Numbered from the stretch's first letter, positions 2,131 through 19,206 are shown. The stretch is DNA of 64,000 nt from Chromatiaceae bacterium (GCA_024235175.1 JACKMX010000009.1:32704-96703), one strand, 5' to 3'. Numbers and translations: made by a program. The notes: generated by a model not told the origin, from the sequence alone.

Positions 2131-3129
2131 TTAGTCGATAATGGTAATATCGCACTGTCTCTGCGGATTTTTGAATCTACCAAAAACGCCATAACCTCCT
2201 GATTTAAGGCGTACAAAGGAACACGAGTCCGGGTCCGTGGGGAGGGGCGCCGGAATCTGCGGTACTGAAACCTTTCCCCAGGTTATTTCTTGGTTTCCGA
2301 CAGCCTGATCCAGGTGAAATAGAAATGTAGACGTTGTGTTTTTCAAATTTAATTGGTGAGTCACCCCGTTTAGCTGGATGTCTTTATCGAAGACCTTGAT
2401 TCGCAGCCTGATGCTGCAACCGTCCGGATCGCCGCAGTGAGAATCCATGATCTCGGGCGGAATCATCATTTGACCCGGTTGTACGTAGGCAGTGATTGTC
2501 TTGTGATACCTGCTTGATACAGGGTAAAGCTTCGGTTCGCCACCGTTGGTCACATGTAGACCGCGGTGCATGAAATCACCGTTGATGTCCAGGGCTGCTT
2601 TGGGTTCCTTTGTCTGAATACCGATTCTCCCCGGTCTGGCACCATCCTGGAGGACGAGATCTACCGGATTTCCATCGTCATACTGATATGTCAGGAGCCT
2701 GGCATAGGAATTCCTGCCCGGCGCCTCCATGAGTATGACGCGCCGCTTCTTTTCACCACCGTCACTAACGATGAAACGCCCGCCCTGTTGCAGTGTACCG
2801 CGCACCTCAAGCGGTTCTTTAGGTTGGATCGAACCCGGCGGGAATGTACCTATTCCGACCTTTCCAAGGACCTGAAGTGATTTCGAGACCCGCGCATCCC
2901 CCTCTATATGTAGCCTGGCTTTCGGATCAGCCGTTCCTATTCCGGCATTGCCCTCAGGGGTGATCACGAGTGCTTCGCCGCTGGTCTCTGCATAGACTTG
3001 TCGCACAGCAATTGGCGCAAGTGTGAGACAACACAAAGAGGCGAGTACGACTCCCCGAAAAAGGCGCCTGGAAGCGCATAGATGCCATTTTCTCGCAGTG
3101 ATAAAGGGGATGTTATTTCCTGCGGTCAT
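2131..3129 (-). CDS. Exported protein with GNAGIGT fibre-like repeats and a Cys-containing C-terminal domain; last gene of the giant-protein operon
   Basis: The ORF runs to 3174, but the Met at 3129 is preceded by GAGGA and gives a signal-peptide-like N-terminus (...RRLFRGVVLASLCCLTLAPIAVRQVYA). Motifs: EGNAGIGTADPKARLHIEGD, SRYHKTITA, CGDPDGCSIRLR, and a terminal CDITIID*. Confidence 0.7.
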   Translation of the reverse strand: MTAGNNIPFITARKWHLCASRRLFRGVVLASLCCLTLAPIAVRQVYAETSGEALVITPEGNAGIGTADPKARLHIEGDARVSKSLQVLGKVGIGTFPPGSIQPKEPLEVRGTLQQGGRFIVSDGGEKKRRVILMEAPGRNSYARLLTYQYDDGNPVDLVLQDGARPGRIGIQTKEPKAALDINGDFMHRGLHVTNGGEPKLYPVSSRYHKTITAYVQPGQMMIPPEIMDSHCGDPDGCSIRLRIKVFDKDIQLNGVTHQLNLKNTTSTFLFHLDQAVGNQEITWGKVSVPQIPAPLPTDPDSCSFVRLKSGGYGVFGRFKNPQRQCDITIID

Positions 3130-3232
3130 TTCCTGTTCCTCTGAGGAAGTGAAAAATATACGAAGTCGCTCCAAGCGGGCTCACATCCGCTGGCCATAAG
3201 TCAAGCTGAACATCCGGACGACAGGATGCATT

Positions 3233-17386: not shown

Positions 17387-19206
17387 AGTTTGCCTGGCTC
17401 GTCTGTGGATTTCTTGCCAAGAAGCACCCAGGCCCTGCTATCCCGATTTTTTCTGTAAACAGTATCGAAGTCGCTTTTCAGTCCCTCATAGGCCGCAAAA
17501 TAGAGGTGCATGAAAAGCATCTTCTGTGTTCTCTCTCCGATAGCCGATTCCAGCTGTTTGACCTGGTCGTCGTTGAGGTCCTCGATCATTTTCTGGTAAA
17601 AGCTCAGCGATATCCCCCGGTTTTTGTTTATTTCACCGGAGATGTCATCCAGCCAATTGTTTTGAGTTGCGCCCGGAAACCTCTTCCTGACGACCTGGGT
17701 ATAGGCACGCAGCGAGTCGAAGCTCCCGGTCAGGGAGCGCGGGATGGTCATGTCGGCATTCTTGGAAGTACTGAACTTGCCTGACAGCTTCTCGAGATGC
17801 TCGAGAAGTTCAGCGCCGCTGCGGAACGCGCGCCATGGCGTCTCCAGCATGTAGCGCTCATTCTGCGCCGGCACCCTGTCGAGCGGGATTTTGCTTCTGC
17901 GATAGTGTTTGATCAGATTCCAGCGCACATTTTCAGGAGAATGAGCCAGCTGCGTCATGACGACCACTTTTGAGCCGGCGGGAATCCGGTGCGCTTTCCC
18001 GACAGGGTAGTGCCGTCTCTCCTGCGTAACCGGATCACCATCCAGCCAGTAACGCCGGCTTGCGAGGCGATCATTGAAGGCATAGTGAAAGCTGTTGCCA
18101 CCGACGACAGGTGCGCTGAAGGTAACCAGGTTCATTGCTCCCCAGGGCCAATTCCGAACTTCATCCGGCATTTTTGATTTATCATCTTCAGGATCGTAGA
18201 GAGTGCCCAGCAACACCGCGCTGCAGAAGTGGCAAGCCAACCCTCCACCCAGACTGTGTCCGGTTACATGAATCTGTCGCGGCGGAATGCCGTTCTTTTT
18301 TTTCAGAATAGCATCAAGAGCCCCAAAGATTGTGGGCAACATTGTCTTGATGCTGCTTCTGAAGCCATTTGTGGCCGAACCAATGGTGCTGATTTCAGGA
18401 TCCTCCGAAACGGAAGGGGTCGCCATGTCGGTCACCCAGTCCGGATTTTTCTTACCCTCCAGTGCCAGTCTGATCCGGGGATCGCCACTGCGGCTGCCGC
18501 GAAACGCGATGTGAATGTCGTAAGGTTTGGTGCTCGTGCCCTTTATGGGCCCCACCTGGCCGCCAAGTTCGTCAGCCTCCAACTCACGTGCGAGACAAAA
18601 ACCCATCAGGCTCCAGTATGAATACCGTTTCTGACCGGTTTTGTTCTCGATACCACCGGTGCCGCCTTCAAAACAGTAAAGGTAGTCTGTCGCGGATGGC
18701 ACACCGCGCGCCCGGGTGAAAGCTATTTTCTGAACCTTGACGTCACTTGGATCGGGATGGCCCGAGCCCTTGTAGAACCCATGGTTCCATTTGTAATGGG
18801 AAATATGGATTTCTGCGATGCGTTCGGTGATCTCTTTGGGCGTATTGTAGAGAAGCCAGGGCTCTTTTGTTCCACGCGGACGGGTAAAACCCACTCGCGA
18901 CGGATCCACCCGGCGGTAATCGCTGACAATGAAGTCCAGGAGGTCGTTAGGCTTCCAGCCATTACTCTCCATGTCTTTTTCTGAACCCGCCAGCACCGCA
19001 TGCCCCCGGTACCCCAGGTGGTCATCCTTTTGGCCAGGCTTGATTTGTTTGGGGCTTATGACCTCGCGGACCGCAGCCTTGAAAGCGCTGCGTTCGGACT
19101 TGTGGGTATATTCGTAGTAAGGATCAAGCGGCCACAAATGACTTTGCGCGTGAAGTTGGTAAGTAAGAGTACAAAGATCCAAATTATAAATTACATTGTT
19201 ATACAT
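17383..19206 (-). CDS. Class-3 lipase / alpha-beta hydrolase family protein (607 aa), first gene of the operon
   Basis: The nucleophile elbow HVTGHSLGGGLA is present (Ser codon at 18253-18255). The downstream strings TFSAPVVGGNSF and LDGDPV match the class-3 lipase pattern. There is no signal peptide. Confidence 0.8.
   Translation of the reverse strand: MYNNVIYNLDLCTLTYQLHAQSHLWPLDPYYEYTHKSERSAFKAAVREVISPKQIKPGQKDDHLGYRGHAVLAGSEKDMESNGWKPNDLLDFIVSDYRRVDPSRVGFTRPRGTKEPWLLYNTPKEITERIAEIHISHYKWNHGFYKGSGHPDPSDVKVQKIAFTRARGVPSATDYLYCFEGGTGGIENKTGQKRYSYWSLMGFCLARELEADELGGQVGPIKGTSTKPYDIHIAFRGSRSGDPRIRLALEGKKNPDWVTDMATPSVSEDPEISTIGSATNGFRSSIKTMLPTIFGALDAILKKKNGIPPRQIHVTGHSLGGGLACHFCSAVLLGTLYDPEDDKSKMPDEVRNWPWGAMNLVTFSAPVVGGNSFHYAFNDRLASRRYWLDGDPVTQERRHYPVGKAHRIPAGSKVVVMTQLAHSPENVRWNLIKHYRRSKIPLDRVPAQNERYMLETPWRAFRSGAELLEHLEKLSGKFSTSKNADMTIPRSLTGSFDSLRAYTQVVRKRFPGATQNNWLDDISGEINKNRGISLSFYQKMIEDLNDDQVKQLESAIGERTQKMLFMHLYFAAYEGLKSDFDTVYRKNRDSRAWVLLGKKSTDEPGKL

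Follow-up and report, generated by a model that had tools for sequence, protein, structure and literature searches.

Three conserved large proteins beside an interchangeable hydrolase gene: a possible enzyme carrier in diverse bacteria

What is the role of very large bacterial proteins that are encoded tightly together behind a lipase gene and carry few recognizable motifs? This question is raised by a minus-strand operon of approximately 17 kb in a 64,000-nucleotide (nt) stretch of DNA from a Chromatiaceae bacterium (GCA_024235175.1, JACKMX010000009.1:32704-96703), the whole of which is hereafter called the window. An earlier inspection of this DNA (the original prediction) had described the block as a lipase-led operon encoding a candidate undescribed multi-protein system. 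Here, comparison with its relatives established a conserved and mobile multi-protein system, in which an invariant trio of proteins is accompanied by a polymorphic hydrolase slot. In the window, the three core components are, in this order, a 1632-amino-acid (aa) protein with the DUF6603 domain (12488-17386, minus strand, GTG start), a 743-aa protein (10260-12491, minus strand), which is the most conserved member, and a 1159-aa protein (6784-10263, minus strand).

Conservation and mobility of the trio

The 743-aa family was used for an alignment-based scan of approximately 185,000 species, each represented by one genome, and was found in 152 of these species genomes from at least 10 phyla. The carriers belong to the Acidobacteriota, Nitrospirota, Bacteroidota, Cyanobacteria, Actinomycetota, Bacillota, Verrucomicrobiota and Gemmatimonadota as well as to the Alpha-, Beta-, Gamma- and Deltaproteobacteria. 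The scan provided 80 loci, and 88 loci, many of them on truncated contigs, were analysed with our own open reading frame (ORF) calls and iterated hidden Markov models (HMMs). Members of the 743 family are present in all 88 loci, those of the DUF6603 family in 86 and those of the 1159 family in 80. Downstream components are less regular: a Kelch family occurs in 68 of the 88 loci, the family of the exported 619-aa protein in 46 and a family of short fibre proteins in 35, with one to three fibres where they are present.

The gene order, on whose conservation in other genomes the original prediction had staked its proposal, proved to be widely kept. In all seven neighbourhoods seeded on the 1159-aa family, a variable gene is followed by the DUF6603 gene, a gene for a protein of ~750 aa (sometimes in two pieces), one for a protein of ~1200-1600 aa and the Kelch gene, and then by genes for a ~610-680-aa protein and a small fibre-like protein. 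The same succession of variable gene, DUF6603, 743, 1159, Kelch, 619 and fibre recurs in more than 80 loci from many phyla, which is far more than expected by chance; at a Micromonospora locus the order is permuted. Clustering of all other flanking ORFs revealed no conserved ATPase, lysis, secretion, immunity or regulator family beyond one family of ~200-aa proteins, which is described below.

Several features show how the set of genes travels. The closest matches of this gammaproteobacterial copy are found in Acidobacteriota and Nitrospira, transposases lie beside several loci, and copies reside on actinomycete and Paenibacillus megaplasmids. Furthermore, one Saprospiraceae metagenome-assembled genome (MAG) contains two loci (L059 and L076) with different upstream genes. 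Combined, these observations indicate an accessory, horizontally mobile unit.

An unusual arrangement was observed on a Paenibacillus sonchi plasmid (L089; NZ_CP068596.1, 11923-16894), where a 743-family homologue is followed by a gene for a 934-aa protein and no DUF6603 gene is present. Helicases, a PLD fragment and insertion sequence (IS) elements surround it, and this locus may be a degenerate or minimal variant of the system.

A variable enzyme precedes the DUF6603 gene

The first gene of the operon (17383-19206, minus strand) encodes a class-3 lipase of 607 aa without a signal peptide, which matches Pfam Lipase_3 (E = 1.9e-11, 44.5 bits against a gathering cut-off of 22). Ser318 of its GHSLGG motif and His422 are invariant in seven orthologues, and the Asp-containing GDP(V/I)TQ motif is kept in most of them. 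The lipase in the window thus has an intact triad and is apparently active. Searches of the PDB with the lipase by sequence and profile were empty or returned noise.

This lipase family is present in only 7 of the 88 loci. The gene directly upstream of DUF6603 varies from locus to locus, and 40 of the encoded proteins form at least 19 clusters that are unrelated to one another. Their Pfam types include Exo_endo_phos (EEP), Lipase_3, Lactamase_B (metallo-beta-lactamase, MBL), PLD, patatin, Peptidase_M91 (an 'effector protein' family), DUF4135, alpha/beta-hydrolase and M20 peptidase, and one further protein shows a weak match to Scabin-like ADP-ribosyltransferases. In L012, the closest gammaproteobacterial relative of the operon, the position is occupied by a PLD protein. 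No targeting domain common to these proteins was found by phmmer. Judged from these comparisons, the lipase is a swappable cargo and not a defining part of the system. To call the operon lipase-led is therefore misleading, because the lipase fills a hypervariable slot in front of a core formed by DUF6603 and the ~750- and ~1200-aa proteins.

No immunity gene is evident beside the lipase: its gene overlaps that of the DUF6603 protein by 4 nt, and no ORF is present between it and the IS110 element upstream. The ~200-aa family mentioned above was found upstream in 11 loci, all of which encode a short DUF6603 protein (~950-1040 aa). Its conservation across loci suggests an adaptor rather than an immunity protein. 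Among the loci with a short DUF6603 protein, that of Ca. Accumulibacter necessarius (L029, 2177-5562) contains additional upstream genes for a ClpB-D2-like AAA+ protein, an alpha/beta-hydrolase and an unassigned 424-aa protein. Another (L074, 3-1124) has a sigma-54 activator upstream, and an ORF of equal size and position occurs in L024 (3-1124). One subtype with a short DUF6603 protein may thus be regulated by sigma-54 and optionally include an ATPase.

The DUF6603 protein and its exchangeable N-terminal part

The original prediction had called all three giant proteins poor in motifs. This holds for the 743- and 1159-aa proteins, neither of which has a Pfam family, but not for the 1632-aa protein, which carries Pfam DUF6603 (PF20248) at residues 934-1402 (E = 1.2e-123, 413.8 bits against a cut-off of 27). 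HMM coverage divides this protein into two parts. Conservation is universal only in the C-terminal ~800 residues of the family, represented in the window by a glycine- and aromatic-rich core of ~765 aa (12488-14785, minus strand). The N-terminal region is common to only about one third to half of the homologues; in the window it comprises ~867 aa (14786-17386, minus strand), and we regard it as a putative cargo-docking or adaptor region.

At matched similarity of the core, the N-terminal part co-varies with the type of cargo. Compared with L001, whose cargo is also a lipase, the protein of the window scores 0.35 bits per residue in the N-terminal part at 0.84 in the core, whereas the comparison with L012 and its PLD cargo gives 0.12 at 0.85. 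Likewise, in the core-similarity bin of 0.9-1.3, the N-terminal mean is 0.67 bits per residue for same-cargo pairs versus 0.22 for different-cargo pairs.

A word-indexed homologue search with the DUF6603 protein returned seven matches, two of them fungal. A profile search of the PDB with the DUF6603 core found no relative, and none of the papers in the searched collection names DUF6603 or PF20248. Much longer DUF6603 proteins of 3,160-3,200 aa are encoded in seven loci (L077, L082, L083 and L085-L088) of Algoriphagus, Hahella, Moorena, Belliella and Fulvivirga; their ~2,000 N-terminal residues match no Pfam family. A hybrid AMP-binding/polyketide synthase gene follows these loci, either linked to the system or merely adjacent.

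A fungal locus with all three core proteins

In the fungus Chaetomidium leptoderma (L091; MU856935.1, 219-17305), intron-containing homologues of all three core proteins are clustered. The DUF6603 gene adjoins two unannotated genes for proteins of 1407 and 1184 aa, which HMMs identified as full-length homologues of the 1159 family (E = 1e-123) and the 743 family (E = 7.6e-86), respectively. In Colletotrichum, the DUF6603 gene is the only one of the trio within 10 kb. The occurrence of the complete trio in Chaetomidium implies that it was transferred between kingdoms.

The DUF6603 protein of Chaetomidium begins with a ComEC-like MBL domain, so that an enzyme is fused to the region that varies in bacteria. 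Taken together with the co-variation of the DUF6603 N-terminus and the cargo, this fusion argues that the enzyme and the N-terminal part form one exchangeable module and interact with each other.

Core proteins without detectable structural relatives

The 743-aa family has more than 1,526 homologues. For the 1159-aa family, an exhaustive profile search gave 4,993 representatives at 50% identity, of which 3,070 have E <= 1e-30; homologues occur in Nitrospira, Woeseiaceae, Pedobacter, Flavobacterium, Burkholderiaceae and Micromonospora. A single-sequence genome scan with the 1159-aa protein gave no confirmed match. RefSeq names the proteins of the system only 'hypothetical' or 'DUF6603 domain-containing'. 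Some members of the core families are decorated with additional domains, namely He_PIG and TIG in the 743 family and Laminin_G in the 1159 family as well as in the Kelch family.

AlphaFold2 models were made of the 743- and 1159-aa proteins, on which all structure searches rest. Both models are confident, with a pLDDT of 86.4 and a pTM of 0.84 for the former and of 82.8 and 0.82 for the latter. The 1159-aa protein is predicted to be multidomain and beta-rich, with an alpha-hairpin of ~60 Å at residues 385-471. Foldseek, with E <= 1e-3 taken as significant, found no significant match in the PDB for the 743-aa model (best E 0.076), and none in the PDB (best E 0.53) or BFVD (best E 0.069) for the 1159-aa model. 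The matches of helical hairpins to AcrA/MacA, STAT3 and spike proteins are insignificant and were rejected as homology.

Sequence searches led to the same result. No match for the three giant proteins was found in NCBIfam, PADLOC or PHROGs, DUF6603 is their sole Pfam match, PDB searches by sequence and profile were empty or returned noise, and profile-profile comparison of the three core families revealed no domain in common. Hence, the giant proteins have no confident profile or structure match to a characterised machine, in agreement with the proposal of an undescribed system unlike known secretion, toxin or defence machines. The HExxH, YD, RTX and PAAR motifs reported missing were indeed not found. 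The same applies to a convincing Walker A: the sole string resembling one, AAQKGGKS at residue 240 of the 1159-aa protein, is not conserved, lies in a loop of low confidence and was rejected.

Kelch, propeller and fibre proteins

The frequent fourth component is, in the window, a 555-aa Kelch protein (5124-6791, minus strand) without a signal peptide. It has a beta-rich N-terminal region and a C-terminal Kelch beta-propeller, with matches to Kelch Pfam families at residues 302-441. In three fusion proteins (P0200, P0211 and P0307), the Kelch N-terminal region is joined to the 1159-aa family, and one such fusion also carries a 619-like region.

The original prediction had assigned Sec signal peptides to the last two products of the operon, and N-terminal hydrophobic, signal-like segments are confined to these two in the window. 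The families behave alike: such a segment marks 84% of the members in the 619 family and 90% in the fibre family, compared with just 0-11% for the families of the lipase and of the DUF6603, 743, 1159 and Kelch proteins.

The 619-aa exported protein (3233-5092, minus strand; counted from the ATG, with the longest ORF extending to 5227) is predicted to comprise a Sec-type signal peptide (ending in SVQSAAA/D), an N-terminal beta-sandwich-like domain and a PQQ/BamB-like beta-propeller. Compared with the PDB, the profile of its family matches PQQ-type propellers, namely Cake10 (1e-53), 3hxj (5e-26) and the BamB-like Rv3035. Gram-positive loci encode a giant multi-propeller protein as the downstream partner.

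The last gene (2131-3129, minus strand; 332 aa counted from the ATG, with the longest ORF extending to 3174) encodes a protein with GN(A/V)GIGT beta-helix repeats and a Cys-containing tip, which matches a PHROG tail fibre (3e-6) and is probably an exported or anchored short trimeric fibre. A paralogue of 420 aa (728-1990, plus strand), encoded convergently to the operon, is a member of the same HMM family and also matches a PHROG tail fibre (3.4e-6). Its ~55-aa N-terminal tail with a short coiled-coil-like stretch is followed by a hydrophobic helix and by the DALFID…GNVGIGT repeats. This protein, like several others of the family, looks signal-anchored rather than cleaved. Other loci often encode two fibres in tandem or close together, and the paralogue probably belongs to the system. 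While all seven genes of the predicted block stand, its left boundary does not, since this paralogue lies in the same neighbourhood and the unit thus reaches further. The motif for export by the Tat pathway (SRRLFRG), which was considered for the fibres, matches 4 of 46 members and is thus not a general feature.

The profile of the fibre family matches PDB entries of Bdellovibrio fibres (Bd2133, 8ond, 1.6e-15; 8oml, 2.2e-9; 8ojn, 7.5e-8; also 8ol4). From these matches, the family shares homology with the trimeric beta-helix region of the Bdellovibrio MAT fibres, adhesins with swappable tips that are displayed on the surface of a bacterial predator (PMC10769870). Like these, both fibre genes in the window encode trimeric beta-helix repeats, with an export or anchor segment at the N-terminus and a variable tip at the C-terminus. 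However, the fibres described here are three times shorter (~330-420 versus ~1000 aa) and are encoded in the operon of the DUF6603 trio in non-predatory bacteria, and the likeness rests on the repeat region.

A possible carrier of enzymes aimed at other organisms

What could a conserved trio with an interchangeable enzyme be used for? We tentatively favour the reading that the block is one instance of a widespread, undescribed carrier or delivery system for polymorphic effectors, aimed at other organisms, with its function read from context. The DUF6603, ~750-aa and ~1200-aa proteins, made in the cytoplasm, would form a carrier complex, which the Kelch protein would usually join. This complex would carry the interchangeable hydrolase encoded directly upstream, which is the class-3 lipase in the window, and the variable N-terminal part of DUF6603 would dock the cognate enzyme or, in fungi, be fused to it. 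Binding to the target surface may be supplied by the Kelch protein and, where present, by the exported PQQ-type propeller and the MAT-like fibres. The role would be offensive or directed against grazers, with a membrane- or nucleic-acid-degrading enzyme carried into competitor or predator cells in the manner of Tc/ABC toxins or tailocin-like particles, by unrelated folds and with no ATPase. Complex formation, cargo docking, release and delivery to another cell are steps that we infer. It is possible, with a little less than an even chance, that the trio is a new type of ATPase-independent toxin carrier, built from folds not seen before, loaded with hydrolases through the DUF6603 N-terminus and shared by at least 10 phyla and fungi.

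The carrier reading is favoured because of the toxin-like spectrum of the cargo, the extracellular-type decorations, the homology of the fibres to adhesins and the lack of a defence-island context. Several observations speak against it. Neither the core nor the cargo has a signal peptide or a transmembrane helix, and no conserved secretion, lysis or ATPase gene lies alongside, so that no export route is evident. The fungal trio likewise contains no signal peptide. The 619-aa protein and the fibre are exported and the core is not, and this split is a further weak point. The missing immunity gene fits a non-bacterial target or a latent enzyme, and equally an effector of abortive infection. Finally, the co-variation of cargo and DUF6603 N-terminus comes from few pairs and could reflect recombination breakpoints only.

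For the carrier reading, two described classes of toxin offer precedents. Tc toxins of Photorhabdus and Yersinia are encoded by operons of giant proteins without Sec signals or ATPases and contain a beta-propeller and a hypervariable toxin; these operons are mobile and also occur in Gram-positive bacteria and, through transfer, in fungi. The system described here shares the very large proteins in an operon, the lack of Sec signals and ATPases, the beta-propeller, the hypervariable enzyme, mobility and the occurrence in Gram-positive bacteria and fungi, and both carry Ig- or lectin-type receptor-binding decorations. In contrast, it lacks RHS/YD, SpvB, TcA/VRP1 and neuraminidase-like domains, and its two modelled core proteins have no PDB match. 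Its cargo is encoded by a gene of its own upstream, or is fused to the N-terminus of DUF6603, and does not form a C-terminal tip as in TcC; Sec-exported propeller and fibre genes are added.

Polymorphic toxin systems, as Zhang and Aravind reportedly described them in 2012, combine a conserved trafficking module with a swappable toxin. Here too, a hypervariable toxin-type module stands like a cassette beside a conserved apparatus (at least 19 clusters from 40 loci), and the part of the carrier nearest to the cargo is swapped together with it. However, no cognate immunity gene adjoins the toxin-type gene in the window, the toxin is not the C-terminal domain of the carrier, and no known trafficking domain (such as those of type V, VI or VII secretion systems, PVC or Rhs) is present.

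Alternative explanations

Of the alternatives, cell-autonomous immunity or programmed death is the most probable, although less so than the carrier reading. Under this explanation, the giant trio would act as a scaffold or sensor and set free a latent hydrolase inside the producer, as abortive infection against phages in bacteria and for allorecognition or antiviral defence in fungi. It would account for a core and effector that are all cytoplasmic and for the lack of an immunity gene. Moreover, the repertoire of patatin, PLD, lipase, EEP/MBL nuclease-like and protease proteins is also typical of abortive-infection systems, the distribution is patchy and horizontally mobile, and a trio with an N-terminal enzyme fusion in a fungus resembles fungal NLR-like death proteins. 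The bias towards cyanobacteria, actinomycetes, Bacteroidota and Acidobacteria recalls the conflict systems of 'complex' bacteria. CBASS, Avs/STAND and Lamassu also combine a variable phospholipase, nuclease or protease effector with a conserved module, are patchy and mobile, and have no immunity genes.

Other results are at odds with immunity. When eight proteins were compared with the 5,027 models of PADLOC-DB 2.0.0 (E <= 0.01), none matched, and only ~2 of 125 flanking ORFs from 56 loci match PADLOC (E <= 1e-5), so that the flanks are not defence islands. The conserved core contains no nucleoside triphosphatase (NTPase), nuclease or nucleic-acid-binding domain, although Foldseek would readily detect a P-loop, and the cyclase or SMC sensors of the systems named above are lacking. 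An intracellular sensor would hardly be expected to have tightly linked genes for exported propellers and adhesin fibres, or Ig and LamG decorations, and neither such exported components nor the fungal occurrence is shared with those systems. Homologues were found neither in 50,697 GenBank phage genomes nor in IMG/VR viral contigs. On the same evidence, a phage origin of the system was rejected.

A non-conflict apparatus, such as an envelope or surface structure or a complex for lipid or polymer processing with a housekeeping-like upstream hydrolase, appears quite improbable. It agrees with the lack of a toxin-immunity pair, with the exported propeller and fibre, which suggest association with the envelope, and with the sigma-54 activators upstream of some loci; as no known fold was found, an enzymatic or structural role is compatible too. 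However, the single slot holds at least 19 unrelated enzyme families of differing chemistry (lipid, phosphodiester and peptide), which argues against a single metabolic role. The system is also rare among the species scanned, patchy and mobile, as expected of accessory conflict genes, and the one MAG with more than one copy has differing upstream genes.

A divergent member of a known machine (Tc/ABC toxins, an extracellular contractile injection system (eCIS), tailocin or type VI secretion-like apparatus, MARTX or a large clostridial-type toxin) whose similarity is hidden by divergence is very improbable: tail-fibre-like last genes, a weak T4 Gp10_C match in one relative, the Tc-like logic of giant proteins, beta-propeller and variable enzyme cargo and a ClpB/ClpV-like AAA+ gene near one Accumulibacter locus point towards it, but Pfam, NCBIfam and PHROGs reveal no sheath, tube, VgrG, PAAR, baseplate, RHS/YD, TcA or SpvB signature, confident full-length models of two core proteins remain unmatched in a PDB rich in Tc, eCIS, type VI and baseplate structures, and neither BFVD (for the 1159-aa model) nor the phage and viral collections contain a relative. 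In the individual searches, no RHS or SpvB match was found in Pfam and no YDxxGR motif was present; a TcA-like translocator (VRP1/TcA) was found neither in Pfam and NCBIfam nor, as a Tc chain, by Foldseek of the 743- and 1159-aa models (E <= 1e-3). Apart from the fibre repeats, no contractile-system part (sheath, tube, gp25/gp6/gp7-like baseplate, VgrG/PAAR) was found in Pfam, NCBIfam or PHROGs. In total, the system shows no defining feature of known secretion, toxin-complex or defence families, and precedents exist only for its organisational logic and for the accessory fibres.

If the carrier reading is correct, the trio would represent a new and widespread machine for conflict between organisms, with thousands of instances among bacteria from soil, fresh water, the sea and wastewater. 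Its carriers include Nitrospira, Accumulibacter, Acidobacteria, cyanobacteria, actinomycetes and one fungus, so that this conflict system would span kingdoms and have a reach like that of Tc toxins or eCIS. The catalogue of toxin-delivery and immunity proteins would grow by three large families without known fold relatives, Pfam DUF6603 would gain a function, and a modular scaffold that accepts very different enzymes would be of interest for protein delivery and biocontrol. Under the immunity explanation, it would instead be a new multi-protein defence architecture common to bacteria and fungi. Culturable carriers are available in Pseudomonas sp. RHF3.3-3, Pedobacter yulinensis, Chitinophaga sp. 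CF118, Hahella, Paenibacillus kobensis and Streptomyces.

Operon layout and the wider window

The seven minus-strand ORFs of the operon are all intact where the original prediction had placed them, and its description of their junctions could be read directly from the DNA. Overlaps of 4 nt of the ATGA/GTGA type connect the lipase gene with that of the 1632-aa protein, the latter with the 743-aa gene and this with the 1159-aa gene, and the 1159-aa and Kelch genes overlap by 8 nt. The ATG of the 619-aa gene (5092) lies 31 nt past the Kelch stop codon and is preceded by a GAGGAGG Shine-Dalgarno sequence, and that of the 332-aa fibre gene (3129) is located ~103 nt beyond the sixth gene. From the overlaps, we infer that the genes form a single transcript and are co-translated stoichiometrically. 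Scans for promoters and terminators gave no signal above that of shuffled sequence and were uninformative. The three product types that had been named from motifs, a GHSLGG lipase, Kelch blades and tail-fibre-like repeats, are backed by the Lipase_3, Kelch Pfam and PHROG tail-fibre matches given above.

Upstream, the block is bounded, as proposed, by an IS110 element, which is not part of the system. Its transposase gene (19494-20846, minus strand) matches DEDD_Tnp_IS110 in the DEDD N-domain (2.5e-22) and Transposase_20 in the C-domain (1.3e-9). Just past this element, an 831-aa protein with a weak cytochrome c motif (21329-23824, plus strand) and two tandem paralogues with RoxA-like dihaem cytochrome c domains (27335-28858 and 28925-30367, plus strand) look like a redox gene cluster. 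Further away, a 999-aa ORF with weak matches to STAND/AAA_16 NTPases (55102-58101, plus strand) overlaps a 786-aa ORF without a Pfam match (57902-60262, plus strand), and these two could be an unrelated pair of conflict or defence genes. In between, a sigma-54-dependent response regulator (32266-33705, minus strand), an OmpA-family protein with a long coiled coil (36194-38083, minus strand) and an AsmA-family protein (38670-40796, plus strand) are encoded, and this part of the window is ordinary gammaproteobacterial chromosome.

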